NCBI GenBank assembly: GCA_050013655.1
Contig: JBEKEV010000011.1
Coordinates: 13,703-77,702 of the forward strand
Length of the DNA: 64,000 bases
Direction: 5' to 3'
Origin: Bacteroidota bacterium
GTDB lineage: Bacteria; Bacteroidota; Ignavibacteria; UBA10030
Shown: one piece after another, positions 4,620 through 38,235 of the stretch
Position numbering within the stretch: the first letter of the stretch is position 1
Layout of the letters: each line of letters starts with the position of its first letter
Position numbers and translations under genes: made by a program
The notes under the pieces: generated by a model
The model's database searches: none
Seen by the model: the letters and a program-made list of their open reading frames with translations, nothing else
Told to the model about the DNA's origin: nothing

Positions 4620-4738
4620 ACGATTACTTTCTTATTTTATTGCTAATGTTTTTGCAATAACATTTTCTCTCATAACGAAATAATGACCCACCTGACTGTA
4701 CCTGATATGAACAGGCGGTCATCTAAAATTAGAACACA

Positions 4739-12285: not shown

Positions 12286-14133
12286 TTATTTAAGCAACAT
12301 CATCTTCTTTGCTAATACTGTGCTTCCGGCTTCTAATTTATAGAAATAAACACCACTCGAAAGGTTCTTTGCATTAAAAGTAACGGCCTGAGGTCCAGCA
12401 TTCCTCATTCCATTTACCAATACTGCAACTTCCTCTCCTAATAAATTATACACTGCGAGCCTTACTTTCTCACTTTTCACAAGCGTGAAAGAAATTTCGG
12501 TAGACGGGTTGAATGGATTGGGATAGTTCTGATCCAGTTTGTAACTACTGACGACAGACGATGGCTGTTGTTTCACGCCGACAGTAATTGCAGTAGAACT
12601 AAGAATAGCATTGCCCCAATTCGCAGTTACCTGATAATCATTATTGCTTGGAGAATACCACCAATTTGAAGTATGTATACGACTACCTGCAGCAGTAGGT
12701 GTAATATCGTTATCATCCGTTTGCAATTGGAAACTGAATACCTTGGTACCAGATGTTCTATCAGCAGTTGTGAATCCTAAGCTATCCAGATTAAATTTAA
12801 ATGCTACCCGGTAGCCAGACCTGGAATTGAACATAGTATCGTTTTCTAACCCTTGATTGAAAAGTTTCCAATTATATTGGAGTCCCTTTCCGATATGATC
12901 TGCATAGGTTAACACATTCATCACAGAATCACGCGGTTGTGCCGGTCTGAGATTAAATTGATACGCGCGAGATGTAGGTGGATTTGTAGCATCGGCACCT
13001 CTGCCTACTACGGTTGTTGTAGATGTATGAGTATGGTTTGCATCGGTGAAAAACTCGATACCATCCATTTGCCAATCGATAGCGGTTACGGTATCAATAA
13101 CGTCGTCGTAGACTGTGAAAAGACCATAGATATATTGATTATCGTAGAGTCCATAGAATCTCCATCCTTGATCTTGCGGATTAGCACCGCTTGTAACACC
13201 GCTACTATTTGTGATATAATCCATAGTAAGCTGATTTGCTTGTTGCCAAACATTATCAATAGTACCATCCAAGGCAGGCGGCGTCGGAGTTTTTAGGAAC
13301 ACGTAATTTGTATCGATCAAATCACCAAAAACGGCATCGCCCCAACCCACAGTTGCCTGATAATCAGTATTTTGCGTTGAGGAGTTCCAATTCAGAATAT
13401 GGATACGACTACCTGCAGCAGTAGGTGTGACATCGTTATCATCTATTTGCAACTGGAGACTAACCTTTTTTCCAACGGCTACAGACCCAAGGCCTAAACT
13501 ATCCAGGTTAAAAGAAAACTCCACAAAATAACCACTTGGACCGCCATTACTTATAGACGATGTATCCAACATCCATTTATATTGGAGTCCCTTTCCGATA
13601 TGATCTGCATAGGTTAACACATTCATCACAGAATCAATCGGTTGTGCCGGTCTGAGATTGAATTGATACGCGCGAGAGGTAGGTGGATTAGTGGCATCGG
13701 CACCTCTGCCTACTACGGTTGTTTGAGATGTATGTGTATTATTTGCATCGATGTAAAACTCGATACCATCCATTTGCCAATCGATAGTGGTTACGGTATC
13801 AATCACATCATCCTGAACATAAAACAATCCATAGATTTTAGTACCATCATACAAAAATTTAGCCCAGCCGGAACAATCTGACCAGTCGGTTGGATAGCTA
13901 CCATTTTGTGGTAAAACATATTGCATCCATGTAGCATCTACGAGATTCCAAATTTGATCCTTCGTATAGTTGCCGATCGTCGGTGCAAGGCTCGTGCTTA
14001 TCTTCGGAATGATCAAAGCGCCGTCATTTGCGCCGCCTTTTATAATTTTCGCTTGAGCAATACCGACTACCAGAACTAATACAATAACAAAAAGTAAAAT
14101 TCTGTGTAACCTCATGACGTGTTTCTCCTTCAC
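12286..14133 (-). CDS. Secreted T9SS-sorted protein built from two tandem copies of a domain of about 235 aa; probably carbohydrate-binding, and the resemblance to CBM9/DOMON is not certain
   Basis: Signal peptide; two internal repeats (…TIDWQMDGIEF…VVGRGADATNPPTSRAYQFNLRPAQP…LTYADHIGKGLQY…DDNDxTPTAAGSRIH…); C-terminal KLDQNYPNPFNPSTEISF...YFYKLEAG T9SS tail. Confidence 0.6.
   Translation of the reverse strand: MKEKHVMRLHRILLFVIVLVLVVGIAQAKIIKGGANDGALIIPKISTSLAPTIGNYTKDQIWNLVDATWMQYVLPQNGSYPTDWSDCSGWAKFLYDGTKIYGLFYVQDDVIDTVTTIDWQMDGIEFYIDANNTHTSQTTVVGRGADATNPPTSRAYQFNLRPAQPIDSVMNVLTYADHIGKGLQYKWMLDTSSISNGGPSGYFVEFSFNLDSLGLGSVAVGKKVSLQLQIDDNDVTPTAAGSRIHILNWNSSTQNTDYQATVGWGDAVFGDLIDTNYVFLKTPTPPALDGTIDNVWQQANQLTMDYITNSSGVTSGANPQDQGWRFYGLYDNQYIYGLFTVYDDVIDTVTAIDWQMDGIEFFTDANHTHTSTTTVVGRGADATNPPTSRAYQFNLRPAQPRDSVMNVLTYADHIGKGLQYNWKLFNQGLENDTMFNSRSGYRVAFKFNLDSLGFTTADRTSGTKVFSFQLQTDDNDITPTAAGSRIHTSNWWYSPSNNDYQVTANWGNAILSSTAITVGVKQQPSSVVSSYKLDQNYPNPFNPSTEISFTLVKSEKVRLAVYNLLGEEVAVLVNGMRNAGPQAVTFNAKNLSSGVYFYKLEAGSTVLAKKMMLLK
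12874..13805. repeat. Intragenic tandem duplication with a period of about 704 bp; the core copies 12874..13100 and 13578..13805 are about 90% identical at nucleotide level, while the rest of each unit has diverged
   Basis: Direct comparison of the two stretches (tatattggagtccctttccgatatgatctgcataggttaacacattcatcacagaatca...). The plus-strand ORFs 12937..13296 and 13642..13881 are antisense shadows of the repeat. Confidence 0.8.
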
Positions 14134-14292
14134 TTTGGTTATATACTAAATAGTTAACTATTAAATTTACATCTTTCGCCTTTTTTCCACTCACCTCCAT
14201 TTCTTGCAAAAATAGTCCTCATGAAAAATAGTGAATAATTTTAATGATGATACAAGACAACTTTTAAAAATTTGTTACACAACACTGCCAAA

Positions 14293-15570
14293 TTATGGGA
14301 GATTCCGGCCAAGATATGGAGCACCAAGCAACGGTGTATTATCTTCTTTTGCCATTCCTATTTTATATAGGCTAGTTGCCGTAGATGATCTTAGATATAA
14401 ATATCTTCCCCCACCCCAAATAAGTTGACTAATCCCTGTAGGCAAAATATTGTTATAGTAATAAGGTAAAAGGGAACCGTTCTCCAGTATATATAAAGAA
14501 TAGTTTGCATTACCAAGAAGAGAAACTAAAACCGTACCGTCAGAGGCAAAATTAAAAGAACTTACGGTACAACCTCTTAAACTTGTATCAGCTGCTATAT
14601 TGACGACCGGTTGTTTACTTCCAACAGTACCGTCAGGATTGATTGGACTTCTGAATAAGCTTGTCGCATCAGCTGCATAGACGTAACCATTATATATACG
14701 AATTCCTACGAATGTAGTACCAGCATAGTCGGCACTGCCAACAACAACCGGTGTTGTCGATCCTTGTTTTATTAAAATCAATCCACTTTTTGATCCATTA
14801 AAATAGATATCTCCGTTACTATTGAAATCAAATACTGAAGAACTGTAAGCTGCAGAAAATGTTACATAGGCTATAGGCGTAGCACTAGCAGTATCAAGTT
14901 GATAAATTGATTTGGATCCGGCGAATGTAGCATACAAGAATCCATGAGGCCCGAATTTCATGTCAGAAAAGGCTTTGACAAAATCTGTTGCTTTATTATT
15001 AATTTTTGTCTTAAAGTAAGAAGTATCTTTATATGGAATTAAATCAATTCCATTAGGCTTTAACATAGTGATATAACCCGTACTCGCTATCCATAGAGTG
15101 TCACCCCCAGCCGTACCATTTTTGTTTGCTTCCATTACACCAACGATTCCCGTCGGTATGCCGGTCAGGTCAGATGAGCTTATTGGAGATTCCAAGTTAT
15201 ATGAAAACTTACCTACAGAATCTGCTTGAAGAATGACTGCATTAATCGTTAAAGCTCCAGAAATGACCGGCCTGTAGACAACCAAAGTATCGGCAGCAGC
15301 TGACATCCGTTTTATAATCGCTTGTTCTGATCCGAAATAAATCCAATTCGAATCAAGCTTACTGGAGAATTTTCCTATGATTGAAATTTCTCTCACTCCA
15401 GCAAGAGCAGAATTTGCCGGCAATACACCTGTAATAACAGATCCGGTTGCATAAGATCTATTGGGATCCCACATTGTTGGAGGAGTCGAGAAATTGTTGC
15501 ATGCACTCAGGACAACAAGCATGAGAATAAAAAGACCGAAAACAAAATAAAATATAATTTTTCTTTTCAT
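14293..15570 (-). CDS. Hypothetical lipoprotein, beta-propeller-like
   Basis: Signal peptide with lipobox (VVLSAC); repetitive YxxAxD/NGDIYF-type motifs; no recognisable catalytic motif. Confidence 0.45.
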   Translation of the reverse strand: MKRKIIFYFVFGLFILMLVVLSACNNFSTPPTMWDPNRSYATGSVITGVLPANSALAGVREISIIGKFSSKLDSNWIYFGSEQAIIKRMSAAADTLVVYRPVISGALTINAVILQADSVGKFSYNLESPISSSDLTGIPTGIVGVMEANKNGTAGGDTLWIASTGYITMLKPNGIDLIPYKDTSYFKTKINNKATDFVKAFSDMKFGPHGFLYATFAGSKSIYQLDTASATPIAYVTFSAAYSSSVFDFNSNGDIYFNGSKSGLILIKQGSTTPVVVGSADYAGTTFVGIRIYNGYVYAADATSLFRSPINPDGTVGSKQPVVNIAADTSLRGCTVSSFNFASDGTVLVSLLGNANYSLYILENGSLLPYYYNNILPTGISQLIWGGGRYLYLRSSTATSLYKIGMAKEDNTPLLGAPYLGRNLP

Positions 15571-15589
15571 AATGATACCATTCTATATT

Positions 15590-16609
15590 TTACATTGAGA
15601 AAGATACTGTAAATCTTTGGACATTATTAAATACTCCAAAAGGCGTATAGGAATAATCAATCTGAAAATTGGCGGAAGATATACCTAAACCGGAAGATGA
15701 AATTCCTAAACCATACGTAACTCCATCTTCATCATCCCCGGTAATATACCCGCCCCGTAATGCAATTAAATTCATAAATTGATACTCTACACCTATTTTT
15801 ATTTGTTCCGGATGAGACATGGGATGGGTAACATCGCATGAGAGAATCAAAGATTGTTTCGGCCCCTTCAAATCGTAGAAATCAAAAAGATTTGCCGATA
15901 TACCGACAGTAAATATTAATGGAAGCTGGAAACTTTCTTCTTCGTAAGTAACATCATTTGAAAAATTCCTTATCGACATTCCAAAATCAATACTTTTGAT
16001 ACCTGTTTTAAAATTTGTACCGAAGTCATACGCAACCGCACTTGCTACGTTCTGTTTGGTAACTACCGTGTTCGCAGCAGTGGGCACTGCACTTTTTCCC
16101 AACGATTGATAGGCAAATCGAACTTGAGCGCCGACACCAAAACGATCAGAGATCATTTTTGCATACCCGATCCCTATCGCCATTGCAGTTGGGTCCATAG
16201 TACCGGTGTCAATATACCCCTGGCTATTATTCCACACCATTGTTCCCAATACGTCGCCATAATCGACAGATTGAAAACTCAGGCCAAGAACACCGTAATC
16301 TCCAGACCAAGGGGATATGATAGCGCTACAAGATAAATATTTAATATCTGCTATCCATTTATTAACGCTCACATTAGCAGTAAAAAAATTTGGCATTTCA
16401 GCCATCGTTGCCGGATTATGAGTTAATGCCGCCGAACAACCGAAGAGCGAATTCACAGCATCACCCATAGCGCCAGCTCTTGCATCAGATGATATGCTAA
16501 GAAAATCGAAACCGGTCTGCGCTAACTTTTCTTGTTGACCATAGGATAGAGATGCAGACAATCCGATTATCATAATCACTGTCAGGTATGTTATTATTAA
16601 TCGTTTCAC
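15590..16609 (-). CDS. Outer-membrane beta-barrel protein of the FadL-like / PorV-PorQ type; possibly a T9SS-associated outer-membrane protein
   Basis: Signal peptide ending ...SYGQQ; N-terminal FLSISSDARAGAMGDAVNS resembles the FadL/PorV family entry motif; alternating hydrophobic pattern; aromatic C-terminus (FTVSFSM). Confidence 0.4.
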   Translation of the reverse strand: MKRLIITYLTVIMIIGLSASLSYGQQEKLAQTGFDFLSISSDARAGAMGDAVNSLFGCSAALTHNPATMAEMPNFFTANVSVNKWIADIKYLSCSAIISPWSGDYGVLGLSFQSVDYGDVLGTMVWNNSQGYIDTGTMDPTAMAIGIGYAKMISDRFGVGAQVRFAYQSLGKSAVPTAANTVVTKQNVASAVAYDFGTNFKTGIKSIDFGMSIRNFSNDVTYEEESFQLPLIFTVGISANLFDFYDLKGPKQSLILSCDVTHPMSHPEQIKIGVEYQFMNLIALRGGYITGDDEDGVTYGLGISSSGLGISSANFQIDYSYTPFGVFNNVQRFTVSFSM

Positions 16610-16641
16610 CTTCTTATTTCTCCTGTTTAGAATGCCACCTG

Positions 16642-17526
16642 CTAGTACGACAAAATGACGACTTTAAATTGATTGGCTATGCTATTACTTGGACTTGCTG
16701 GTGTTGGATTACTTATTTGCGACGGATTAGTTAATGTGAACCGGACCAAGTAAACACTCCCTTGATCGAGATGAATAGTATAACGTGCACTAATAACTGG
16801 TACAATTTCTATTTTGTTGTTACCCGACAAGATTCTTTCGCTGGAATTATATGCTGATTCTGTCGATATCGTTGACGAAGGGCTTACAACCGACGTATCT
16901 CTTTTCACAAGGTCAATCGAAACATAATCATTAATATTAGAGGTTGCGTTTGTGGCATTATAATAATAAAGCAAACTCGTATAGAAATATATATCCTTCG
17001 CTTGGGCAGATTTCAATACTGCATAGCTTACCTTGCCTGAATAGTTTACGGCTATTAACGAATCTTGATGAAGTTCCGGAAGGACAGCTGCCAATGAGTC
17101 AAATCCTGATAGAATAATCTGATTATCAATTGTATCTCCGAGACTCTGAGAGTGAACAATGGACCAAGTAACAGGTAAAGATCGAAATGAAACAGGAGTA
17201 GGCGGCGTCGAATTGCTTAAACTGATCGGCTGGCCTGAGCCGTCAAGCGGAACATACTGATAAGAGGCTGTAAAACCTTGAACATCATTGAGAGTATCAC
17301 TCGTTAATAAATTACCTGCCTTTAAATCAATATCCGATGGAGTAAAATTTTTGGCTTTGAAGTCAGTTGGTAACAAACTATTACACCCAAGGCATGCGAA
17401 AAATAATGCACTCACCAGAAATAGGAAAATAGAGCGAACATAACTATCTTGATAATGAGGGTACATTTCGTTCTCCAAATAATTTGTATTATCTGATAAT
17501 GATAAATTTCCGGATGATATTCTCAC
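16642..17526 (-). CDS. Hypothetical lipoprotein (the likely start is the internal Met at about 17466)
   Basis: An internal signal peptide with lipobox (FFACLGC) follows a 20-aa leader; Ser/Thr-rich; no known domain recognised. Confidence 0.4.
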   Translation of the reverse strand: MRISSGNLSLSDNTNYLENEMYPHYQDSYVRSIFLFLVSALFFACLGCNSLLPTDFKAKNFTPSDIDLKAGNLLTSDTLNDVQGFTASYQYVPLDGSGQPISLSNSTPPTPVSFRSLPVTWSIVHSQSLGDTIDNQIILSGFDSLAAVLPELHQDSLIAVNYSGKVSYAVLKSAQAKDIYFYTSLLYYYNATNATSNINDYVSIDLVKRDTSVVSPSSTISTESAYNSSERILSGNNKIEIVPVISARYTIHLDQGSVYLVRFTLTNPSQISNPTPASPSNSIANQFKVVILSY

Positions 17527-19783
17527 CCTTTCTCAAAATCAATTGATTACTCGTATCGTCATAAATATCTTGTGTAACTTCGAAATATGCAATATATAAC
17601 CCACTCACTACAATTTGCTTAGAAGAAGTCAGTGAATTCCATGTTTCATCACCGCTTCCATTTGTATGATTGATGGTCTGAATCAAATCCCCTGCTTCAG
17701 TAAATATTTTAATCACACAATATTTTGGCAACCCAAAAAATGCAAGCCGGTTTGCTACCGTTCTATCCGTGCCGAATTGAAGTGATGCTGCTTTGATATT
17801 GTATGGATTAGGAACTACTCGAATATCTGAAAGCTTATTGGCAGCTGGTCGCTGCAATGAAGCAGATATATTGGTCATCGTATAGAACATGTTACTTACC
17901 AAAGGCACGCCGGGTTCAATATCGTTTGTTGTCCCATTATCCTTGGTTTGGATATAATAAAAGTAGTTAAATCCTCGTTTTGCTGATTTATCATCATAGG
18001 AATTCGTTACAGTGCTCTTATCACAAGAAAATATCAACTCGAATTTTGTAGCGGTTGTAGTTTCTGCACGATACAGCCGATACCCGTCAAAAGTAGGCCA
18101 CGATTCTGCACTCTTAGACCATTGCAACGAAATTCTATCACCGCCCGATGTCACTGTAAAATCATCCGGCGGTGGCGGAGGCTGAGGAATATTGTAATGA
18201 CTGTTGTAGTTTGCTCGTGCACGCCGAAATGTTTGGAACAATGAATCCCTTCCACTAAACACCCAGGCATTCTTATAGATATTACCATCTGTAGTCGTGC
18301 CTCCATTCCAGGGATTCCAGGACCCTACAGGAAGTGTAGGGTCAGTAGAAGGAAGAGTAAGAGGTATCGTATTACCACTTTTACCATTTTGATACCAGGG
18401 CCACCAGCTCTTTACTATTTCGATATTTTTTTCACGACTTATTCCTGCAACTGCCTCGGCAATAACAATCCGGATACTATCGCCTGGTGCAAGTGTATAT
18501 GGCCCAAATCCCTGCTGGTTGCCATACCCGCCCGTATTTCCACCCCACGTATTGCCAAAACCTGTGGGCCATCCGTTTGCATCTTTTCCAAGTTGTTCGG
18601 CATGAGTTTTTGCATCATGACCGGATGTCATTGATTGATATTGCTGCGTCATGGTAATTGGATTAAACGGACTTGACTGAGTGATATTTTCTATGACACC
18701 ATCCGAACCCATAAATGTCGTCGTTCGCGGCTGGGTAGGATCATTTGCAGTGTCCTGCGGGGATGTATCTGCATGTAATACCATTTCACCTGTAAATCCG
18801 ATGCCACCCAGAATATGTCCATCCAGAAAATCTGGCGCACCAATATCATCCAACACTCCTGTCGAAGAAGATTGAGGTCCATAATATGCAAAGCTCGCAC
18901 AAAAATTATTCGGAGCAGGAAGTGTATGTGTCGCATCTTGTCCCACTGCATCATTGATAGTGTTATGTCCATAACTGATTTGGGGATATCCCCATGCCTG
19001 CTCATAGCCCTCATTATTATCGGCAAACCGATATCTGAAATCAAATACCACACCGGTCAGTGTTTTTGCCGGCGTGATTTGCCCTCCGGTATTATCGCTC
19101 AAACCCGTATTCTTAAAAACATATTCGTAGATGTAATAATTATCGTGGTACTGTTGCGTAGAGGCGAGGACTTTTCTATAGATTGTTATACCTATCGGTG
19201 TATTCACACTGTTGTAGACCATTCGATCCACAGGCAAATTTGAAACAATTCGATCTTGATCTGCCCCTCCCTCAGTAATAGCTTGATTAAGATCATTCGC
19301 CATAGTAGGTTGAGTAAGATCATTCTGATCAAGATCACTGGCTTTATTGCCATCTACGATAACCGTAGGCGCAGCAGAACGGCCAATCAATTTAAAATTT
19401 ACTGGATAGGAAGCAGAATTGACATACAGTGCCGCTCGTCCAAGAGGAATGACTTTGTAAGGATATGTTACACCATTTGTTGGATCTGTAAAATTCGTTG
19501 TACCAATCCATAATGCTTTTCCCACATTATGATCCGTAGACGGATATTGCGCAGGCCAGCGTAAGCCATCATCCTGATCTGTATTTAAATAACCCCTCCC
19601 CCTTCTGCCGTATTCAACTTCAGCACCAGTGCTGGAAAAATATTGCCGTAAAGAACTCACCCATAACCATTTAACGACCTGCGGTCCAAAAACCTGGGCT
19701 TGTAATTGCTGGGTAGTAATTATTCCATATGCACTATACAGCGAAATTACTATGAGAGCTTTTGCCAGATATTTTTTAATCAT
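17489..19783 (-). CDS. Large secreted protein with poly-Pro linker, FN3-like domain and a variant T9SS C-terminal domain; function unknown
   Basis: Signal peptide; PQPPPPPDDFTVTSGGDRISLQW (FN3-like); C-terminus VVPNPYN...VIKIFTEAGDLIQTI...SGLYIAYFEV...RKFIIIR resembles a Por secretion tail. Confidence 0.5.
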   Translation of the reverse strand: MIKKYLAKALIVISLYSAYGIITTQQLQAQVFGPQVVKWLWVSSLRQYFSSTGAEVEYGRRGRGYLNTDQDDGLRWPAQYPSTDHNVGKALWIGTTNFTDPTNGVTYPYKVIPLGRAALYVNSASYPVNFKLIGRSAAPTVIVDGNKASDLDQNDLTQPTMANDLNQAITEGGADQDRIVSNLPVDRMVYNSVNTPIGITIYRKVLASTQQYHDNYYIYEYVFKNTGLSDNTGGQITPAKTLTGVVFDFRYRFADNNEGYEQAWGYPQISYGHNTINDAVGQDATHTLPAPNNFCASFAYYGPQSSSTGVLDDIGAPDFLDGHILGGIGFTGEMVLHADTSPQDTANDPTQPRTTTFMGSDGVIENITQSSPFNPITMTQQYQSMTSGHDAKTHAEQLGKDANGWPTGFGNTWGGNTGGYGNQQGFGPYTLAPGDSIRIVIAEAVAGISREKNIEIVKSWWPWYQNGKSGNTIPLTLPSTDPTLPVGSWNPWNGGTTTDGNIYKNAWVFSGRDSLFQTFRRARANYNSHYNIPQPPPPPDDFTVTSGGDRISLQWSKSAESWPTFDGYRLYRAETTTATKFELIFSCDKSTVTNSYDDKSAKRGFNYFYYIQTKDNGTTNDIEPGVPLVSNMFYTMTNISASLQRPAANKLSDIRVVPNPYNIKAASLQFGTDRTVANRLAFFGLPKYCVIKIFTEAGDLIQTINHTNGSGDETWNSLTSSKQIVVSGLYIAYFEVTQDIYDDTSNQLILRKGENIIRKFIIIR

Positions 19784-19817
19784 ATGAATAATACCTTTTA
19801 TTATCAGCGTTCTTTAT

Positions 19818-22800
19818 TTATAAATTAAACGATAGATTAATGCCATAGTAAAATTGTCTTGGATTCAGAAAATCAAAGGAACTGTTGTTCGGCATATCGA
19901 TATATTCCTTATTATCTAAAATCTTTTTCATCTTGTTTTGATCTACTACAGACCAGCTACCATTGATATAGTTCATATATCTACCAGTTGGACTATCATA
20001 ATAGATAACAGTAGGATCGAAAGCAGATGATTGTGTATTGATTCCGTTTACGTTTCCGCTAAAAAGAATCGGAGTATATACGCCATCTGTACAATATGCC
20101 CCTACCCGATCATTGCCAGGAATATTTGTATTACTATATGCAGGGCTTTGAGGTAAATGCAGCGATTCCATATAAAAATTGAAGTCGCTCGGATCATAGA
20201 AGCTTTCTCCCGACAACCTCTTCGCATTCAATAAGTTGTTCGTCTCCATGAACACCGTTACTGCAAAATTTTTGAAAGAGAAAGTTTTATTGAGGCGAAT
20301 GTTTACATTGAAATAATCTGTAACCTGAACGTTATTTTGGATAGCGGTGGCTAGCTGCGGATTATATGTAAGCCATTGACCGGCTTTCCAGTTTGCTACG
20401 ATATTAAGAGACCAATCACCCAGAAGATCACCTCCGAGGAAATGAGGCCCAAAATTTATCGGTGTTAAAAACGTAATACTTGCATTAGCACGAGGTTGGG
20501 CAACCGGTGTTTGTCGAACAAGCAGATATAACGGATTCGTCTGACTATTGTCGAGTATTGCTTGTTCGGCTGGATTATCAGCAATGGCTACTTGGCCAAA
20601 TTGACCCGACGTTGCCACTTGGTATATGTAATTAATAAAACCCCGTACCCAGTCACCGGAAGTTTTTCTGAGAGTTAACTCAAGTCCTCGAACATCCGAA
20701 TAGCTATTGTTGTTGGCTGCATAGTAAGCAATACTTTTCTGATCACTCGTATAAAATGTAAATGCCTGCTGAGATGAAATATCATTATAAAAAGCTGCAA
20801 TTTGAATCAAGTATGTATCAAAGAGAGACTGATCAAAACCTAATTCATAAGAGACGGTTTGAGCTTGTGGCAAATTCGGATCACCATAATTGCGCAAATC
20901 GCCTGCTTGTCCACGACCTATTCTGTAAATCTCATCATAGGAAGGCATCTCTTTAAAGTGTCCGTAATTAAAATACAGTTTTGAACTTTCTGTAATCGGA
21001 TGCGAAATACCTAATCGGGGACTGAAAGAAATGTCAGTCTTAACACGTTCTTTCGCATATTGAATAGTATCATTATAGGCAGCGGAGAAAAAGGATTGAT
21101 TAAAAGGATCCGCAGCAGCATCAACCCAATCAGTATTTGGATTGCTTATGTCCATTCTTACGCCGAGATTGGCGATAAATCCATATGCTTCTATCTTATC
21201 CTGTACATACGCAGAGATAAGGTAGGGATTGAAATGCTGTTTCACCCAATCCACATCACTGAAAGCCGGATTCACTGTACCATAATTCATATTAAGATCG
21301 TAATATGAAAATTCAAATCCTGCTTTAAACATATGCTCTTTAGTAGCTTGACTTGTTATATCTCCCTTAATTTTCAGCGTATTCAGCTTGCTGGAATCAC
21401 GTGCAGTAGCACTGTGACCACCAAAGAATAAAGACGCATCTCCAATACCTGATGTCAGCTGAGAACTATATCCGTAAGGTGCTTCATCAACAAAATACCC
21501 CGGAGCTATTTCATAATTTTGGGCAGTATCCCTTGCAGCAATAGGTCCCGTGAGATAGCTACGATGTTCATCTTGTATACTTATTTCATAATACGTCGAT
21601 AAGCTTAACATAGAAGTGATTTTTGCACCTACATTGAAATCACTGACAACTGCCGGACAATACCAAGAATCATCATATACCCTGCTTGACCTTTGTTCAT
21701 ACGTAATACCAGCTATTTGATCTGGTGTTCGCAGATAGTCTGTCGGATTCCAAAATGGGTAAGTCCCTGGAGCCTGTGTGAGCCAAGCCTGATTGTAATA
21801 TCCGTTATCAGTCGCGTTAATAGCGACATTATAGGATTTACCTATCGAGGCATTTAGCAACAGTTTCGTTTTGTTGTTTATATCTGAATTCAACTTAATT
21901 GACCAGTTATAATCCTCATAATCTGGACGGCTGAGAGGAATAAGAAGCATTTCTTTGTTCATAATAAAACTTGTAAAGAACCGAAGATTGCCCAAATCCT
22001 CACCAATGATTGGTATAGGCCCGCCAATACTACCGTCAATATTATAATCGGGTGAGTTCGTAGAAGGAGTTAGTCTATGTTGGTACTCATAGAGACGTTG
22101 ACACGCTGCGGGCGAAAGATCAATACCCTGTTGCAAATATTGTTGAGAAATAGCGTTCCAGCCGACAAACTTAGGATATTGATTCTGAGTATATATGCTC
22201 CATGCCCCGTTATTAGTACCCGTCCAACAAACGGCAGGGTCCATATAGGGGCGGTTCCACATCGAATTAGGATCATACTCAGACATTCCGAAATATTTCT
22301 GTTGTGGAGGACTGTACTTTACATTTATGGAACCAGAATAATGAGAAACATCCCCTTCCTTTTGGACGATATTTACAACACCGGAGCGCGCCTGTCCATA
22401 CTCTGCGGCAAAACCTCCCTTTTCTATCGAAACTTCCTGAATGGAAGTTAAGGCAATATTAGAAATAGGTTTATTGTTTCTGGGATCACGTTGAGTTGTA
22501 CCATCTACATTAAGAAGCATGTCGCTTGCGTTGCCGCCTCTAATGACAAAACCATCTTCCACTCCTGCTTGCAAGCCCACCATATCATTAATCGAAGTTA
22601 CGGGAAGAATTGTCAATTCCTCAGGCTGTACTGTACTGACACTGGAGGATACATCCTTTTTGACGACGTGTCTTTCAGCAACAACTTCAACAATTCCCGA
22701 TTCAATTGCTTGAGTCTCCATTTCAACGTTAACAGTTGCAGTTTGATCTATAAGAACACGTATTCCATTCACAGTGACCGTCGAATAACCAACCATACTT

Positions 22801-23039
22801 GTTATAATATTATGGATACCAGGCGGAACAGATAGAATTGCATAGTACCCATCAATATCTGTGGCCGCGCCCAGAGATGTTCCCTTAACAATGACATTAA
22901 GGCCGACAAGCGGTTCACGAGTTTCTTTGTCCACAACTCTGCCAGCTATTTTTCCTGTCGTCCCTGCTAAAATAATATTTACCGTCAGTGCAAAAAGTAA
23001 GGCAAAATAGATAAGAATTCGGTATTGACCCGATACCAT
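19818..23039 (-). CDS. TonB-dependent outer-membrane receptor, SusC-like, with N-terminal CarboxypepD_reg domain and no SusD partner
   Basis: 1073 aa; GKIAGRVVDKETREPLVGLNVIVKGTSLGAATDIDGYYAI (CarbopepD_reg); a TonB-box-like VEVVAER; plug and long beta-barrel; C-terminal aromatic residue; strong AAGGAG Shine-Dalgarno. Confidence 0.8.
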   Translation of the reverse strand: MVSGQYRILIYFALLFALTVNIILAGTTGKIAGRVVDKETREPLVGLNVIVKGTSLGAATDIDGYYAILSVPPGIHNIITSMVGYSTVTVNGIRVLIDQTATVNVEMETQAIESGIVEVVAERHVVKKDVSSSVSTVQPEELTILPVTSINDMVGLQAGVEDGFVIRGGNASDMLLNVDGTTQRDPRNNKPISNIALTSIQEVSIEKGGFAAEYGQARSGVVNIVQKEGDVSHYSGSINVKYSPPQQKYFGMSEYDPNSMWNRPYMDPAVCWTGTNNGAWSIYTQNQYPKFVGWNAISQQYLQQGIDLSPAACQRLYEYQHRLTPSTNSPDYNIDGSIGGPIPIIGEDLGNLRFFTSFIMNKEMLLIPLSRPDYEDYNWSIKLNSDINNKTKLLLNASIGKSYNVAINATDNGYYNQAWLTQAPGTYPFWNPTDYLRTPDQIAGITYEQRSSRVYDDSWYCPAVVSDFNVGAKITSMLSLSTYYEISIQDEHRSYLTGPIAARDTAQNYEIAPGYFVDEAPYGYSSQLTSGIGDASLFFGGHSATARDSSKLNTLKIKGDITSQATKEHMFKAGFEFSYYDLNMNYGTVNPAFSDVDWVKQHFNPYLISAYVQDKIEAYGFIANLGVRMDISNPNTDWVDAAADPFNQSFFSAAYNDTIQYAKERVKTDISFSPRLGISHPITESSKLYFNYGHFKEMPSYDEIYRIGRGQAGDLRNYGDPNLPQAQTVSYELGFDQSLFDTYLIQIAAFYNDISSQQAFTFYTSDQKSIAYYAANNNSYSDVRGLELTLRKTSGDWVRGFINYIYQVATSGQFGQVAIADNPAEQAILDNSQTNPLYLLVRQTPVAQPRANASITFLTPINFGPHFLGGDLLGDWSLNIVANWKAGQWLTYNPQLATAIQNNVQVTDYFNVNIRLNKTFSFKNFAVTVFMETNNLLNAKRLSGESFYDPSDFNFYMESLHLPQSPAYSNTNIPGNDRVGAYCTDGVYTPILFSGNVNGINTQSSAFDPTVIYYDSPTGRYMNYINGSWSVVDQNKMKKILDNKEYIDMPNNSSFDFLNPRQFYYGINLSFNL

Positions 23040-23392
23040 AGACTTTCTCCTTTAATAAATTCTTTCTAGTCCAACTCTATATTATCTAACAAAATAAATA
23101 ATTGCCTATCTACAATAACTTAAAAATCGACACAATGATTCTTTAATATTCAGATGTTCTATCTTTGTTATGCGAGAATTTATATTTTGGATTCTTTGAA
23201 ATGAATTTACAATATATTGATTTTGTACTCTAATGAAATCGAATGAACTGCTTCTTAACGCGTTTCGATACATCAATGCAAAGAACACTATACTTAAATG
23301 AAGAATATTTCTGATTACGGAACCCGAATTGAGGCAAGCATTACAACCACAATGCCTTTTCAAAATATAACACCTTTCTTCAAATCCTTTTC

Positions 23393-23408
23393 CGCAACAT
23401 CTGTACCA
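23393..23408 (-). promoter_or_regulatory. Candidate sigma54 (-24/-12) promoter for the TonB-receptor operon
   Basis: Minus-strand TGGTACAGATGTTGCG has GG and GC elements at the canonical 12-nt offset (consensus TGGCAC-N5-TTGCW). It lies about 350 nt upstream of the receptor ATG, next to the sigma54-activator gene. Confidence 0.35.
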
Positions 23409-23524
23409 AGTAAAAATCCGGTTTTTTCTGCGAGAGTTAGTAAGTAAGTTAGGAGGGATTATTATGCTAATAATGACTGCATTATCAGCCATGATAATTG
23501 ACCTAAGGGAATAAATATCTAGAG

Positions 23525-23555
23525 AGAACTGCGAATTAGCGTATAAAGCAGTTCT
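23525..23555. promoter_or_regulatory. Inverted repeat AGAACTGC-N15-GCAGTTCT; a possible enhancer (UAS) for the sigma54 activator, or a stem-loop at the 3' end of the response-regulator gene
   Basis: Perfect 8-bp arms, about 130 bp upstream of the candidate sigma54 promoter. No U-tract follows on either strand. Confidence 0.25.
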
Positions 23556-23572
23556 TTAGAAAAATATGCACA

Positions 23573-25036: not shown

Positions 25037-25057
25037 AATGTCTCTTTTCCTATCTTC

Positions 25058-26560
25058 TCAATGCGGTGCAATAAAGATAAATTTACATCCTCCAGCTGGA
25101 AGGTTCTCTGCATCGATCTTCCAACCGAAGCGTTGCGTCGCAAGTTCATACGCAATATAACAACCATATCCAGAGTGTTCCTTGCCCGCTAAGGTGCCAG
25201 AGGTTACTTGTTCTTGGAATATTTTCTTGATACCGTTCCCATCACTTTCCAAAAGATCTGGGCGAATTCCTGTTCCATTATCCGCAATCGTGATTATCGA
25301 TTGCTTCAGCGTAGGATTGTATTCTGTTTTAATGGTGACGACTTTATTCTCTACTCCAGAATGGTCTACACTGTTCTGGATAATTGGTTCGAGCACTTCC
25401 CAAATAACATATTCATTGATGGCAACTTCAGGCATCATAGGATCAAGCTGAAGTTCAAACTTCGTTATCGGTCGGTTATCCGACACCCGCTGAAAAATGT
25501 TTTCCACAATAAATTGAATACCCTCATTCACGTTCGTTCTAAACAGCGGGCTTCGAATTGTTTGGATAGGCGGATCATACCATTTCATATCATAGATCAC
25601 CCGAGCAATGAAGCTGGCGTATTTGCCGATGCGGTTCTTTATAAAGCCGATGTTTTCAGCCGTTAAACTTCGCAGATCCTCTTTAATAAATCCGACAATT
25701 TTTTCAGCTTTATGATGAGTATGATAGATTCGCTTTGTAAAAAGCATTTCTTTTTGATGATTGATTTGCTCTGCCAAATGCAATTTCTGTTCTTCAAATA
25801 GCAACCGCTGCACCTCGTTCCGCTCGGTAAGGGTCCGTGTCGAGATATAGAACATCGCAAGTAATCCTACAATGATGAGAGCAGAATAAACCAATGCTGT
25901 CTGACTATAGTTCTTCGACATTTCCTCAGTAAGAAATGTCAGATCAGGAATAGTCTTCATGTATACCGCACCGACAAATTCGCCCCGCGGAACGAACGGA
26001 ATAAAGACATGAAATATCTGTTCCCGCTCCACGATAGTGTAGGTTTGCTCTATTTTGCGAAGCGTATCCTGTACCGATTGGAACAATCGAATTGCCTCGG
26101 CATGTATGCTATCCGAACTTTGAATCCTTTTCGTCTCTCCAAACAAATAGTCATACAATTGTTTACCATCGTCGATTGCAATGATTGCGTTCCCGTGTGG
26201 AATAAGTATAGATACACTTTGAACGTTTTTGTCTAACAATTGCTGGCTAAAAATGATGTTAAAATCCTGAATGATTTTCCGTTCTTCGCTGTCAGAAAGT
26301 TTTGCATTCGAACCCTTCGATTCTAAAAGCATTTCAATGGAAGTAGTAGTCAGATTAGCAATACGTTCAGCGGCATCCTGCTGATACCATTGCTGAGATT
26401 TGACAAATACTTTCCGGAGTGAATTTTGATTCATGAAGAGAACAATGAACTGGAAAACAATCAGTACCAGCGCAATGACTGTGATGTGGCGGATTTCAAT
26501 CCGATATTTATGATATCTGTCCCGAAACCGTTGAGGAGTATTTTGTTTCTCTCTTTTCAT
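25058..26560 (-). CDS. Membrane sensor histidine kinase with a periplasmic sensing domain of about 175 aa
   Basis: Two TM segments flank the periplasmic domain; H-box-like region (IYHTHHK); HATPase_c motifs (DNGTGI, GYGCYIAYE); 4-bp overlap (ATGA) with the upstream SBP gene. Confidence 0.8.
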   Translation of the reverse strand: MKREKQNTPQRFRDRYHKYRIEIRHITVIALVLIVFQFIVLFMNQNSLRKVFVKSQQWYQQDAAERIANLTTTSIEMLLESKGSNAKLSDSEERKIIQDFNIIFSQQLLDKNVQSVSILIPHGNAIIAIDDGKQLYDYLFGETKRIQSSDSIHAEAIRLFQSVQDTLRKIEQTYTIVEREQIFHVFIPFVPRGEFVGAVYMKTIPDLTFLTEEMSKNYSQTALVYSALIIVGLLAMFYISTRTLTERNEVQRLLFEEQKLHLAEQINHQKEMLFTKRIYHTHHKAEKIVGFIKEDLRSLTAENIGFIKNRIGKYASFIARVIYDMKWYDPPIQTIRSPLFRTNVNEGIQFIVENIFQRVSDNRPITKFELQLDPMMPEVAINEYVIWEVLEPIIQNSVDHSGVENKVVTIKTEYNPTLKQSIITIADNGTGIRPDLLESDGNGIKKIFQEQVTSGTLAGKEHSGYGCYIAYELATQRFGWKIDAENLPAGGCKFIFIAPH

Positions 26561-27885
26561 TTGATCAGCACTTCGTTTGAACGAATAAGTTCGTCAATAC
26601 GGGCGAGAGCCTGATCGACAGAAATTTCTCGCTTGATTGCGAGATGTGCAAAATGAGAAATTATATCTGAAACCTTTGTATATTCGACAAGGGCAGGTCG
26701 ATGAAATCCACGACGGAGTAATCGATGGAAAAACGACAATTCATTATGAGTACTCAGGAATACACTATCTTCATAGACAGAATTGATAGCCGGCAAATAT
26801 CCCATTCGTTCAAATATCATTCGTTGAATTGCTTCGCTTTGAAAGAACCGAATGAATTCAATGGCTTCTTTTTTCTTTGTGGAAGATTTTGATATCATCA
26901 AATTCCAACCACCGAAGACAGAGGTCGATGGTCTTCCTTTGAAATGAGGAAGAGGTGCTTTGGCAATGTATTCGAGCTTAGACGGATCTGAGTACGAAGA
27001 ACGTAGATTTTGGACAAAATCAGGCCAGCTGCGTACAAAAACACCATCGTGGTCGAGCATGTATTTATTGCACAAGAATTCATCGAAGTCCGTCACCTCT
27101 TGAGGCGTAGTTCCATCTTTCACAAAGTCAACCATCATTTGAAGAGGTTTCGCTGCTGATGGAGAAAGAAAATGGAACTTGTTCGATTTTAAAAAATCCG
27201 GATCATAACCAACTGCTAATTCGAGGTAATTGCATACCAATCCCTCATAATCTTTTGCCGGGAAAAGATAGAATGGTCTCTTCATAAAAGTTAATCGCTT
27301 GCGCAATTGTGCCATTTCTTCCCAGGTCATCGACTCCTGGAGTCGCTTCTCAACAGCATCTGCATCCAGCAATTTTCGAATAATATCACGTCGATAATAC
27401 AAAAGGCCAACATCTAAGTACATCGGCATAGCCACAAGTGCTCCTTCAAATACACATGACTTCAGAGCATCTTTCAATAAACGTTGTTTCTCATCCATGG
27501 AAAAGTAGGAATCCAGCGGTTCACTCCATTTTGCAAAACGCGGGACCCAAATCAAATCGACAGCAAAGATATCGAGTTTTTCGCTCTTGCTGCGAAGCGA
27601 ACGTGTAAGCAACTCTTTCCGTTCGTTCGTACTGAATTTCGAAAAAGGCAGATTAACGGGAATGACTTCAATCTTTCCTGCATACAAGCGATTGAACTCG
27701 TCAATCGCCAGCTGATGTGAGGGAGAAATATTATCCGCGTAGTATAACTTAACAGGCTGGTTTTTTTCTTCCTTATGGAACACACCAAGAATTGTCGTAA
27801 GCCATCCTATACCAATAAATATTGGGACAATAAGGATTGCTAAAATAAGTAAGTACCTCTTATGCATAAGATGATTTCTTCCCAT
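26557..27885 (-). CDS. Membrane-anchored family-1 extracellular solute (sugar)-binding protein, orphan (no ABC permease or ATPase partners); likely a ligand-sensing partner of the kinase
   Basis: N-terminal TM anchor; SBP_bac_1-like sequence throughout; translationally coupled to the kinase gene; no permease genes adjacent. Confidence 0.7.
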   Translation of the reverse strand: MGRNHLMHKRYLLILAILIVPIFIGIGWLTTILGVFHKEEKNQPVKLYYADNISPSHQLAIDEFNRLYAGKIEVIPVNLPFSKFSTNERKELLTRSLRSKSEKLDIFAVDLIWVPRFAKWSEPLDSYFSMDEKQRLLKDALKSCVFEGALVAMPMYLDVGLLYYRRDIIRKLLDADAVEKRLQESMTWEEMAQLRKRLTFMKRPFYLFPAKDYEGLVCNYLELAVGYDPDFLKSNKFHFLSPSAAKPLQMMVDFVKDGTTPQEVTDFDEFLCNKYMLDHDGVFVRSWPDFVQNLRSSYSDPSKLEYIAKAPLPHFKGRPSTSVFGGWNLMISKSSTKKKEAIEFIRFFQSEAIQRMIFERMGYLPAINSVYEDSVFLSTHNELSFFHRLLRRGFHRPALVEYTKVSDIISHFAHLAIKREISVDQALARIDELIRSNEVLIK

Positions 27886-34498: not shown

Positions 34499-34529
34499 GT
34501 TCTCCGTTAATTATTTTTGAACGAAAGCA

Positions 34530-36029: not shown

Positions 36030-36092
36030 AAAAATCTCCTAACCTTGATACACCGATGAGTTTGTAATTATTATAAATTCTTATTAAAGATG

Positions 36093-38219: not shown

Positions 38220-38235
38220 ACATCCACCTGAGTTA

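Follow-up and report, generated by a model that had tools for sequence, protein, structure and literature searches.

Organization of the locus

How could glycans be captured at the outer membrane when a TonB-dependent receptor (TBDR) is followed by a group of other envelope proteins instead of a SusD? The question is raised by a locus within a 64,000-nt stretch of contig JBEKEV010000011.1 (positions 13,703 to 77,702, forward strand; referred to as the window). The locus comes from a soil bacterium. A first-pass annotation had described a sensory trio, a TBDR, four envelope proteins, a carbohydrate-binding T9SS protein, and a cellulolytic enzyme set. All of these genes are present in the window, and all of them, from the regulatory genes (SBP, HK, and EBP) through the TBDR, proteins E, F, G, and H, the T9SS protein with two CBM9 modules (protein I), and the symporter to the GH3, GH5, and GH94 genes, are on the minus strand. 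The structural genes are as follows.

19818..23039, minus strand: TBDR, 1073 aa; N-terminal CarboxypepD_reg domain, plug, and barrel (Pfam)
17489..19783, minus strand: protein E, 764 aa; no family match
16642..17466, minus strand: protein F, 274 aa; variable accessory lipoprotein, lipobox LGC; start according to the JGI gene call
15590..16609, minus strand: protein G, 339 aa; outer-membrane barrel, PorV/PorQ family NF033709
14293..15570, minus strand: protein H, 425 aa; lipoprotein, LSAC lipobox, Cys24 invariant
12286..14133, minus strand: protein I, 615 aa; two CBM9 modules and a canonical T9SS type-A C-terminal domain (CTD); CBM9_1, Por_Secre_tail
10195..12186, minus strand: sodium:solute symporter (SSF), 663 aa; SSF 96 bits
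7711..9933, minus strand: membrane-anchored SGNH hydrolase and TPR protein, 740 aa; Lipase_GDSL_2, TPR
4739..7660, minus strand: GH3 beta-glucosidase with CBM6 and T9SS CTD, 973 aa
3306..4619, minus strand: GH5 endoglucanase with T9SS CTD, 437 aa
827..3265, minus strand: GH94 cellobiose/cellodextrin phosphorylase, 812 aa; Glyco_hydro_94 520 bits, GH94 supersandwich domain

TBDR, E, the optional F, G, and H form a tightly packed block with intergenic gaps of 19-34 nt. None of E, F, G, and H, the quartet suggested to replace SusD, matched the SusD family in Pfam/NCBIfam profile searches; the gene order given for the quartet was wrong, since two lipoproteins are not followed by the barrel, and the actual order is E, F (lipoprotein), G (PorV-like), and H (lipoprotein). 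The enzymes had been placed between 12286 and 27885 along with protein I, but the GH5/GH3/GH94 genes span 827-7660, and the SSF symporter and the SGNH/TPR protein lie in between. The GH94 enzyme, previously listed as secreted, has no signal peptide at its N-terminus and is a cytoplasmic phosphorylase. In protein I, CBM9_1 matches in two stretches (104 bits), and TIGR04183 also matches. Within the window, which is the part of the genome covered here, neither T9SS core genes nor rpoN were seen.

Conservation and distribution of the cassette

Conservation was counted over 80 independent genome loci, each holding an E homolog. As a cassette, TBDR-E-(F)-G-H is constant throughout these 80 genomes, which belong to Ignavibacteriota, Calditrichota, KSB1, Marinimicrobia, and Kryptoniota. 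E is directly preceded by the TBDR gene in 78 of the 80 loci, the other two being cut by a contig end; G is present in 79/80 (the exception is again cut by a contig end) and H in 72/80. This regularity far exceeds what chance would give. Several phyla of the FCB (Fibrobacterota-Chlorobiota-Bacteroidota) group share the block, and the TBDR-E pair is invariant and often duplicated in tandem, with TBDR-E(-G)(-H) arrays being common. Relatives of E are encoded by at least 553 species-representative genomes, and the family comprises at least 450 clusters at 50% identity (E<=1e-30). One of the carriers, Rosettibacter primus (locus L053), is in culture. The neighborhood comparison that had been suggested as a check therefore identifies the envelope genes after the TBDR as a strongly co-conserved unit. 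Protein F is not a core member of it: a lipoprotein ORF of 200-340 aa with a common N-terminal motif occupies its position in about 41 of 88 E-G junctions, E and G are adjacent in the others, and no Pfam/NCBIfam family matched F. No description of the cassette was found in the literature; in CAZyme gene clusters of Ignavibacteriales, susCD genes were "scarcely detected" (PMC10576277).

The link to glycan use, also assumed earlier, is borne out in other phyla, where the neighbors are T9SS cargo and CAZymes. Among 86 downstream neighbors scanned in distant phyla, a T9SS CTD was found in 33, GHL10 in 7, GH18 in 5, GHL6 in 4, and CBM9 in 3. Homologs of the SGNH/TPR protein recur by the cassette (15 loci by BLAST; 5/86 of the distant neighbors scanned). 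The SSF symporter, which is proposed from its sequence to be the inner-membrane importer for the sugars taken up, is 92-97% identical in the related loci L003, L004, and L086, despite the diverged cassette there.

Protein E and its C-terminal domain

Protein E consists of a Sec signal peptide, a beta-supersandwich of about 400 aa, a helical linker, an FN3 domain, and a T9SS-like CTD of a special type (E-type CTD). No Pfam or NCBIfam family matched it. In the AF2 model (pLDDT 79), the fold is a galactose-mutarotase-like, carbohydrate-associated beta-supersandwich, and structurally it is best matched by N-terminal domains, without catalytic function, of GH15, GH65, and GH94 enzymes. The earlier label of a T9SS-tailed FN3 protein is right as to the FN3 domain and the relationship of the tail, but the curated T9SS CTD models PF18962 and TIGR04183 do not detect the tail; its relationship to T9SS CTDs emerges by profile-profile comparison only (hhalign against a profile of canonical CTDs: E 1.5e-7, 94% probability). 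Two kinds of C-terminus occur in the E superfamily and exclude each other. The E-type CTD is present in each of the 103 E copies next to a TBDR, and the six canonical-CTD paralogs that were looked up are all orphans without a TBDR, G, or H. Judged by these sequence comparisons, the E-type CTD is a distinct T9SS CTD subclass tied to the cassette. In its degree of conservation it does not stand out, since protein I has an ordinary CTD that is conserved just as well. In 16 of the 103 copies, most of them the second copy of an array, G does not directly follow E; hence the E-type CTD may be there to contact the TBDR instead.

E itself is unusually conserved, with 45-55% identity across loci that have different CAZymes. 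This conservation regardless of CAZymes fits a structural or mechanical role better than substrate-specific binding. It would also suit a surface enzyme of an undescribed family (e.g., a lyase, an epimerase-like enzyme, or a hydrolase) that processes glycans at the mouth of the TBDR, as would the many invariant Asp, Glu, His, and Arg residues of E, of which the acidic and His residues may have a catalytic role, and the long E variants fused to beta-helix and BNR propeller domains typical of glycan-active enzymes. Nevertheless, we regard an enzymatic E as unlikely: its closest structural counterparts are the non-catalytic domains mentioned above, the AF2 model contains no (alpha/alpha)6 or other recognized catalytic domain, none of the CAZy-linked Pfam families match it, and its strict one-to-one adjacency to the TBDR resembles that of transporter partners. 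E is instead proposed, from its domains and gene context, to be a T9SS-delivered surface partner of the TBDR.

The receptor and proteins G and H

The TBDR had been called SusC-like. With the SusC/RagA model TIGR04056 it reaches only 96 bits, far below the cut-off of 368, and by this curated score it is not a member of the SusC family. From its domains, we propose that it is an outer-membrane oligosaccharide importer. G belongs to the PorV/PorQ family (NF033709, 187 bits against a cut-off of 90). As an orthologue of PorV or PorQ it was rejected, both equivalog scores lying below the cut-offs (85 against 250 for PorV, 80 against 220 for PorQ); it is a paralog instead. By analogy with known T9SS pairs, G is proposed to be the cognate anchor for the CTD of E.

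H contains an IPT/TIG domain followed by a multi-bladed beta-propeller of about six blades (AF2 model, pLDDT 86), and its homologs match PF01833 TIG. Its top Foldseek matches, 3hrp, 4hw6 (BACOVA_00264), and 3tc9 (BT_3476), were deposited as "auxiliary nutrient binding proteins", and BtuG is also among the matches. H is thus folded and built like the surface lipoproteins of Bacteroides PULs, in agreement with the surface role expected earlier, and the modeled structure suggests a surface glycan-binding or lid protein.

A PorV/PorQ-family barrel and a CTD-bearing protein are T9SS-type parts, T9SS cargo makes up 33 of the 86 neighbors scanned, and the TBDR, with its CarboxypepD_reg domain, fails the SusC cut-off. 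The cassette might therefore be a T9SS-linked device for surface assembly, adhesion, or export, in which the TBDR would work in the outward direction, as has been suggested for Oar of Myxococcus, or serve as a platform. This seems very improbable. The plug and barrel of the TBDR are normal, H looks like BtuG and the nutrient-binding lipoproteins of Bacteroides PULs, and the operon adds a sugar sensor in the periplasm, sugar symporters in the inner membrane, and GH94 in the cytoplasm, which make up a complete inward route.

Regulatory genes and the predicted promoter

The genes and sites upstream of the TBDR are as follows.

26557..27885, minus strand: orphan family-1 sugar-binding protein (SBP), 442 aa; SBP_bac_1/SBP_bac_8
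25058..26560, minus strand: sensor histidine kinase (HK), 500 aa; HATPase_c 49 bits
23573..25036, minus strand: NtrC-type sigma54 activator (EBP), 487 aa; Sigma54_activat 226 bits, Response_reg, AAA_lid_14
23482-23497, minus strand: palindrome TTATCA-N4-TGATAA, exact; the single match with 0 mismatches in the window
23458-23474, minus strand: palindrome ATTATTA-N3-TAATAAT, adjoining the former
23394..23408, minus strand: sigma54-type -24/-12 element TGGTACAGATGTTGC, 1 mismatch to consensus

The SBP begins with a hydrophobic segment (anchor or signal) without a lipobox. Its closest solved relatives are the trehalose/maltose-binding protein 1eu8 (E 1.5e-43) and MalE3, and it is proposed to be a periplasmic sensor of disaccharides or cellodextrins. 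ABC genes occur in the window only at 52091-53673, where they encode an ABC-2-type exporter; therefore, the statement that the SBP has no permease holds. The SBP and HK genes, described earlier as coupled, do overlap, the start of HK overlying the SBP stop codon by 4 nt. The sequence of HK predicts two hydrophobic segments around a periplasmic domain of about 175 aa. EBP has a REC domain, an AAA+ domain with a GAFTGA motif, and a C-terminal HTH; the NCBIfam models for NtrC, AtoC, and NorR each score about 320 bits, all under the equivalog cut-offs.

In the gap that leads from the activator gene to the TBDR gene, a conserved sigma54-type promoter with upstream palindromes is predicted. The palindrome pair (23458..23497) lies 60-85 nt upstream of the -24 GG and is a candidate for the upstream activating sites of EBP; TTATCA-N4-TGATAA is kept in L003 and L004 and has 1-2 changes in L038 and L005. 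The position of the -24/-12 element is conserved in related loci. Of 12 intergenic regions that follow the activator gene, nine matched a relaxed -24/-12 pattern (background 0.08 per kb) and three had no match; among the seven loci not used for the definition of the pattern, four matched, where 0.29 matches were expected. No Rfam family matched the leader between the promoter and the TBDR.

About 10 of the 80 loci have the trio in synteny with the cassette, and HK is also syntenic with the SBP and activator genes in L086 and L088-L090. The trio could be a mere neighbor that controls itself or the upstream SSF symporter, with the TBDR operon transcribed from an ordinary promoter. Such an arrangement would accord with the non-consensus base of the -24/-12 match, the TTGT (not TTGC) at -12 in several relatives, the 355 nt that separate the element from the TBDR start codon, and the occurrence of the trio before a different TBDR module. 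We consider it quite unlikely. In all cases seen, the trio directly precedes a glycan module with a TBDR and has the same orientation; the enrichment of the promoter-like element falls precisely on the gap that follows the activator gene, and the conserved palindromes are suitably spaced.

Comparison with known systems

Like SusC/SusD PULs, the locus has a TonB-dependent transporter with an N-terminal CarboxypepD_reg domain, an invariant partner gene right after it, and then accessory surface lipoproteins; tandemly duplicated pairs among CAZymes, sugar transporters, and a dedicated sensor are also shared, and H has the IPT/TIG-plus-propeller architecture of BT_3476 and BACOVA_00264. Whereas SusD is an all-helical, TPR-like lipoprotein, E combines a beta-supersandwich, FN3, and a CTD-like domain and is not a lipoprotein. 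Furthermore, a PorV/PorQ-like barrel belongs to the unit, and the sensor is an SBP-HK-sigma54 activator system instead of a hybrid two-component system, SusR, or an ECF/anti-sigma pair.

The proximity of E, a CTD-bearing surface protein, to the PorV-like barrel G recalls known T9SS pairs of CTD proteins and barrels, in which the CTD is retained as an anchor. The CTD of PorZ is uncleaved and bound to PorQ, and genes for type-B cargo are clustered with PorP/SprF genes (PMC10202324). For E, CTD retention and binding to G are proposed. Unlike those pairs, E-G sits in a nutrient-uptake operon by a TBDR and not with secretion or attachment machinery, and G is an orthologue of neither PorV nor PorQ.

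SBP-dependent kinase signaling to a sigma54 activator of a PUL-like locus had been thought undescribed, but CuaDSR and LuxPQ-LuxO are precedents for the regulatory idea. In Ruminiclostridium cellulolyticum, the orphan SBP CuaD senses cellobiose with CuaS/CuaR and controls cellodextrin uptake; the system switches on this uptake and a cellobiose phosphorylase gene (PMC10384115, PMC5663094). There, too, an orphan family-1-type SBP gene adjoins kinase and regulator genes. The host, however, is Gram-positive and the target is an ABC importer rather than an outer-membrane TBDR cassette, the regulator of the present locus differs in being a sigma54 enhancer-binding protein, and the nearest solved relatives of the present SBP bind trehalose/maltose. 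Signaling from SBPs to kinases has been reviewed for LuxP/LuxQ, ChvE/VirA, XylFII/LytS, and CBP/ChiS (PMC8050422), and in QseG-QseE-QseF a sigma54 activator is coupled to a kinase with an accessory protein (PMC6075780). LuxP-LuxQ(-LuxU)-LuxO, where LuxO is a sigma54 activator according to NCBIfam NF041946, and the Qse system share the path from a periplasmic binding or accessory protein through a membrane kinase to a sigma54 enhancer-binding regulator. LuxP is of a different SBP class (Peripla_BP_4), the signals (AI-2; envelope state) and regulons differ, and none of these systems controls a glycan-uptake operon. Peculiar to this locus is that the predicted sigma54 output goes to a TBDR operon, in a member of Ignavibacteriota.

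Within the FCB group, cellulose use that takes place at the cell surface and depends on the T9SS is also represented by the outer-membrane cluster chu_1276-chu_1280 of Cytophaga hutchinsonii, in which an SGBP-like binding protein adjoins an endoglucanase (PMC12016534, PMC8564354). The abstract on this cluster mentions no E-family or PorV-like member (PMC12016534).

Proposed mechanism

In the mechanism that we propose, E would be exported by the Sec pathway and then the T9SS; its special CTD would not be removed but would bind G, the dedicated PorV/PorQ-like barrel, and thereby keep E on the cell surface in the way that PorQ holds PorZ. T9SS-secreted GH5 and GH3 would free oligosaccharides from the polymer while the CBM9 protein (I) holds it, and the supersandwich of E, H, and, where present, F would capture what is released and hand it over to the TBDR for import driven by TonB. 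Periplasmic cellobiose or cellodextrin would bind the orphan SBP and activate HK, which would phosphorylate the sigma54 activator; the latter would bind the palindromes (23458-23497) and open the -24/-12 promoter (23394-23408), which would drive the TBDR operon. The SSF symporter would carry the sugars into the cytoplasm for phosphorolysis by GH94.

The first-pass suggestion of a surface glycan-capture complex loses F as a core member, and is otherwise in line with the co-conservation, the glycan link, and the folds of H and E; therefore, a glycan-capture complex in the position of SusD is the best available reading. On balance, we slightly favor the view that the locus is a beta-glucan/cellodextrin utilization operon, which may be built around a SusD-independent, T9SS-dependent outer-membrane import module.

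Gene organization of the locus

Every gene between positions 27885 and 827 of the window lies on the minus strand, and the closest genomes are Ignavibacteriae/Bacteroidota MAGs from peat and fen. The locus comprises the following features:

26557-27885, minus strand: SBP, orphan sugar-binding protein (442 aa; SBP_bac_1/8)
25058-26560, minus strand: HK, sensor kinase (500 aa; HATPase_c), overlapping the end of the SBP gene by 4 nt
23573-25036, minus strand: EBP, sigma54 activator (487 aa; REC and Sigma54_activat, the latter at 226 bits)
23040-23572: intergenic gap between EBP and TBDR (533 nt; candidate promoter and palindromes)
19818-23039, minus strand: TBDR, TonB-dependent receptor (1073 aa; CarboxypepD_reg, Plug and barrel)
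17489-19783, minus strand: E, envelope protein without a family match (764 aa)
16642-17466, minus strand: F, lipoprotein (274 aa)
15590-16609, minus strand: G, PorV/PorQ family protein (339 aa)
14293-15570, minus strand: H, lipoprotein (425 aa)
12286-14133, minus strand: I, protein with two CBM9 domains and a T9SS C-terminal domain (CTD) (615 aa)
10195-12186, minus strand: SSF, sodium:solute symporter (663 aa)
7711-9933, minus strand: SGNH/TPR protein (740 aa; Lipase_GDSL_2, TPR)
4739-7660, minus strand: GH3 (973 aa; GH3, CBM6 and CTD)
3306-4619, minus strand: GH5 (437 aa; GH5 and CTD)
827-3265, minus strand: GH94, cytoplasmic phosphorylase (812 aa)

The first-pass annotation is borne out except in three points: the order of the envelope genes, the location of the glycoside hydrolase genes and the description of GH94 as secreted. 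Spacing within the block formed by TBDR, E, F, G and H is 19-34 nt. The membrane-anchored SGNH hydrolase and TPR protein recurs beside this gene set in 15 loci, across phyla.

Upstream of the SBP gene, a truncated remnant of an IS200-like Y1 transposase (28302-28541, minus strand; PF01797, 97 bits, model positions 2-80 of 121) sits between that gene and another SSF symporter gene (28971-30497). Most related loci have this symporter gene in the gap between the activator and TBDR genes, so the window may have been rearranged here. Two ORFs in different frames overlap by 74 nt at 30684-31830 (minus strand): a cytidylyltransferase-like ORF (31321-31830) and one with a weak GHMP-kinase C-terminal match (30684-31394). 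The overlap may be genuine, or it may reflect a frameshift in one bifunctional gene. Further upstream lies a second sugar-use block (32102-49824, minus strand) encoding another GH94, an MFS_2 transporter, GH3, an aldo-keto reductase, GH2, GH5, GalT, GalK, an SSF symporter, a LacI regulator and an alpha-galactosidase fragment of 191 aa (43356-43931) that is probably truncated. The segment at 50000-56000, with a G+C content of 0.49-0.52 against about 0.40-0.43 elsewhere in the window, may have been acquired separately; its plus-strand genes encode an M28 peptidase, an ABC-2 exporter pair and an OMP_b-brl_3 protein with a CarboxypepD_reg domain.

The TonB-dependent receptor and the absence of SusD

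The TBDR had been called SusC-like, a label that holds for its layout: PF13715, PF13620 and PF07715, with PF00593 on the C-terminal half, give the SusC-type arrangement of N-terminal domain, plug and large barrel. It does not extend to the SusC/RagA family itself, since the protein scored 96.4 bits against TIGR04056 (cut-off 368) and aligned with model positions 2-448 of 981 only. A sequence search against solved structures returned marginal matches only. The reported lack of a SusD beside the receptor was borne out, as no SusD-type family of Pfam or NCBIfam matched E, F, G or H. A canonical PUL is built on an adjacent SusC/SusD pair, whereas here the partner E has a different fold and would probably also be attached to the surface in a different way. 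The locus would function much as a PUL does, but it is not one by definition, since the receptor fails the SusC model, SusD is absent and the partner fold is different.

Conservation of the cassette

Homologs of E numbered at least 792 in 90%-identity clusters, all of them unnamed or annotated as "hypothetical". With a profile built from 23 sequences, at least 450 clusters at 50% identity were counted at E<=1e-30, and 2323 at E<=1e-10. In a collection with one genome per species, E relatives were encoded in at least 553 stretches, of which the best 80 were examined with 10-kb flanks each. These loci belong to Ignavibacteriota (including the cultured Rosettibacter primus), Kryptoniota, KSB1, Calditrichota, Neomarinimicrobiota/Fidelibacterota and WOR-3.

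When the window proteins were compared by BLAST with all ORFs of the 80 loci, 78 loci had the TBDR immediately upstream of E, the other two beginning within E; G was found in 79, the remaining one stopping at E; and H was found in 72. The cassette is thus conserved, with TBDR and E as a fixed pair, and synteny across 80 loci rules out a chance gene order. Arrays such as TBDR-E-G-TBDR-E-G-H-TBDR-E are common, and some loci carry two G copies. The position of F is occupied by an ORF of 200-340 aa in about 41 of 88 E-G junctions, usually with a lipobox and with an N-terminal motif in common; elsewhere E abuts G. F is therefore an optional member of the cassette TBDR-E-(F)-G-H.

Conservation along the locus is mosaic. 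In the related locus L086, the flanking genes are close to those of the window (HK 94%, EBP 95%, SSF 92% and SGNH 88% identity), whereas the outer-membrane block is far more divergent (TBDR 60%, E 47%, G 55%, H 27% and I 35%). The same pattern over 12286-23039 was found in L004 and L038. Replacement or diversifying selection seems to be concentrated on the surface-exposed cassette, between flanks that are conserved.

Protein E and its C-terminal domain

The AF2 model of E (pLDDT 79, pTM 0.78) is all-beta except for two linker helices. A signal peptide lacking a lipobox comes first, then a beta-rich domain of ~400 aa, a pair of long helices, an FN3 domain (about 540-640) and, at the C-terminus, a beta-sandwich. 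The last 115 residues hold the PNP, GxY and hydrophobic-end motifs, read as VPNPY, SGLYIAY and KFIIIR. The curated T9SS CTD models PF18962 and TIGR04183, which recognized I, GH3 and GH5, found nothing in E even at E<=10; an hhalign comparison with a canonical CTD profile, built from 60-odd CTDs of the fetched loci, gave a probability of 94% (E 1.5e-7). HMMs of the E-type and the canonical CTD separated the two cleanly: a sequence that reached about 100 bits with one model had 0 with the other. The E-type CTD closes 193 of 266 E-family sequences and the canonical CTD 44; none has both.

The two subtypes differ in genomic setting. In the loci examined, E-homologous ORFs above 550 aa number 104, and all adjoin a TBDR; 103 of them carry the E-type CTD, and the remaining one is truncated by the locus end. 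G lies directly downstream of 87 of these 103 copies, the other 16 being mostly second copies in arrays. Six canonical-CTD paralogs were looked up in five genomic contexts, and all stand alone: tblastn found no TBDR, G or H beside them. Long family variants of 1100-1600 aa (among the representatives P0178-P0291), in which the E core is joined to a right-handed beta-helix (DUF1565) or a BNR/sortilin propeller, all end in the canonical CTD. This pattern suggests that the E-type CTD marks the transporter-coupled form of E. Conservation of this CTD, the best-conserved part of E, was dropped as an argument for its retention, because I, the CBM9 protein, has an ordinary CTD that is conserved no less strongly in comparison with the rest of that protein.

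Proteins G and H

G matched the PorV/PorQ family model NF033709 over its full length with 187 bits (cut-off 90); a sequence search against solved structures gave no match. Its scores against the orthologue models were 85 bits for PorV (NF033710, cut-off 250) and 80 bits for PorQ (NF033711, cut-off 220). These equivalog scores, together with multiple G copies per locus, rule out a housekeeping PorV.

Work on the T9SS offers a direct precedent: PorZ retains its CTD and is bound to the barrel PorQ, while PorU remains on PorV (PMC10202324). Genes of type-B cargo cluster with those of their cognate PorP/SprF barrels, and a review suggests outright that cognate PorV-like barrels shield a CTD from cleavage (PMC10202324). 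From these precedents and the pattern of CTD subtype and cassette, we infer that G may be a private anchor of E. Every E-type copy also adjoins a TBDR, so contact of the E-type CTD with the TBDR instead is equally allowed. In the mechanism proposed here from sequence and gene order, E would reach the surface through the T9SS, whose core genes lie outside the window, be retained there by G, and serve the TBDR jointly with H and F.

H is a lipoprotein with an LSAC lipobox and an invariant Cys. In its model (pLDDT 86), an IPT/TIG domain is followed by a multi-bladed propeller of about six blades; H homologs also match TIG. The best Foldseek matches were 3hrp, 4hw6 (BACOVA_00264) and 3tc9 (BT_3476), with E values from 1.8e-13 to 2.8e-12; these are Bacteroides PUL proteins deposited as "auxiliary nutrient binding proteins". 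Structure comparison also matched H to BtuG, the propeller lid of Bacteroides BtuB. The Bacteroides PUL lipoproteins with IPT/TIG and propeller domains share with H the lipobox, the domain order and a TBDR neighbor. The first-pass proposal of a surface glycan-capture complex thus gains in part from the structural comparison, in that H resembles PUL lipoproteins; as sequence identity is only about 11%, the likeness is one of common architecture, and an orthologous family is not demonstrated.

Regulatory genes and promoter region

The activator matched PF00072, PF00158 (226 bits) and PF25601, and it has GAFTGA and a C-terminal HTH-like tail, features of the NtrC family; it reached no cut-off of the specific equivalog models. 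In the gap between its gene and the TBDR gene, TGGTACAGATGTTGC at 23394-23408 is a candidate sigma54-type element, with the palindromes TTATCA-N4-TGATAA and ATTATTA-N3-TAATAAT 60-85 nt upstream; the first has one exact match in the window. When the gaps of four relatives were aligned, element and palindromes were in register, with TTGC, TTGT or GTGC at -12. Of 12 gaps that follow the activator gene, 9 contained the relaxed pattern [TC]GG[CT]A[CT]-N4-5-[TG]TG[CT] (background 0.08 per kb), and some of the 12 had served to define it; in the seven held-out loci it was found in four (5 matches, 0.29 expected). The candidate -12 is often TTGT, and three of the 12 loci have no relaxed-pattern match. 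With the strict sigma54 consensus, only the closest relative matched, and window-wide counts were those of chance; conservation emerges only from the alignment by position and from the relaxed pattern. A scan for sigma70 promoters and terminators likewise gave chance-level numbers and did not indicate operon ends.

From the candidate promoter to the TBDR start codon runs a leader of 355 nt (23040-23393, minus strand). It contains no known RNA element, since an Rfam search of the whole window gave no match. A 128-aa ORF (23106-23492), called in neither of two gene-call sets, overlaps promoter and leader.

About 10 of the 80 loci combine the cassette with the trio of SBP, HK and activator; all belong to Ignavibacteriota or Kryptoniota, and a second SSF gene usually separates the activator gene from the TBDR gene. 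Trio and cassette also occur together in L086. Three Ignavibacteriales loci (L088-L090) have SBP homologs with 53-59% identity and the same trio, which is followed by a different SusD-less module: a CBM9-CTD protein, a TBDR of ~900 aa and a protein of ~1140 aa with Ig repeats (HYDIN/ASH-type). The lineage may thus have a second type of partner for its TBDRs. Since the trio precedes differing TBDR modules, it appears to serve glycan modules with a TBDR generally in this lineage, as their front end.

The SBP was confirmed as an orphan, adjoining kinase and regulator genes with no cognate permease in the window, as in CuaDSR. The view that this SBP-kinase-sigma54 layout is novel did not survive: the cellobiose-sensing CuaDSR is a precedent for the SBP-kinase arrangement (PMC10384115, PMC5663094), SBP-kinase systems have been reviewed (PMC8050422), and QseGEF is a precedent for the sigma54 output (PMC6075780). 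The closest solved relatives of the SBP bind trehalose/maltose; the operon content suggests cellobiose as its ligand.

Discussion

A glycan-uptake role of the cassette is well supported by its context. A Pfam census of 86 downstream neighbors at distant loci counted 33 T9SS CTDs, 7 GHL10, 5 GH18, 4 GHL6, 3 CBM9, 3 polysaccharide deacetylases, 3 MFS transporters and 5 SGNH+TPR proteins. Neighbors so varied indicate that the cassette is a generic core for differing glycan-active cargo; in the window, the cargo points to beta-glucan and cellodextrin.

The cassette is a genuine, strongly conserved feature and, within the reach of the search, undescribed: no description of TBDR-E-G-H was found in openly accessible full-text literature, including the papers on the genomes of Melioribacter and Caldithrix and a glycoside transporter review of 2026, which mentions neither these phyla nor PorV. 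A study of paddy soil found susCD to be scarce in CAZyme clusters of Ignavibacteriales (PMC10576277). A cassette filling a gap fits both this scarcity and the silence of the review.

Somewhat short of even odds, in our judgment, is the broader possibility that several SusD-poor FCB phyla (Ignavibacteriota, Calditrichota, KSB1, Marinimicrobia/Fidelibacterota and Kryptoniota) share a second, independent TonB-dependent glycan import, in which a T9SS-delivered supersandwich partner, not a lipoprotein, is docked by its uncleaved CTD to a private PorV/PorQ-like barrel beside the transporter. If so, the T9SS would be a structural prerequisite for nutrient uptake, and both the E-type CTD as a class and E as a protein family, with at least 450 clusters at 50% identity, would be new. 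Because cultured carriers exist, namely Rosettibacter primus (L053) and probably Melioribacter and Caldithrix, the model is directly testable.

PUL prediction tools and most thinking on "selfish" glycan uptake rest on SusC/SusD pairs, and Ignavibacteriales and their relatives are abundant degraders in soils, peat, sediments and hot springs. The TBDR-E-G-H signature, which is easily recognized, would mark glycan-uptake loci in these phyla, would assign a function to a large nameless protein family, and would carry the idea of a cognate PorV-like barrel from secretion machinery into nutrient transport.
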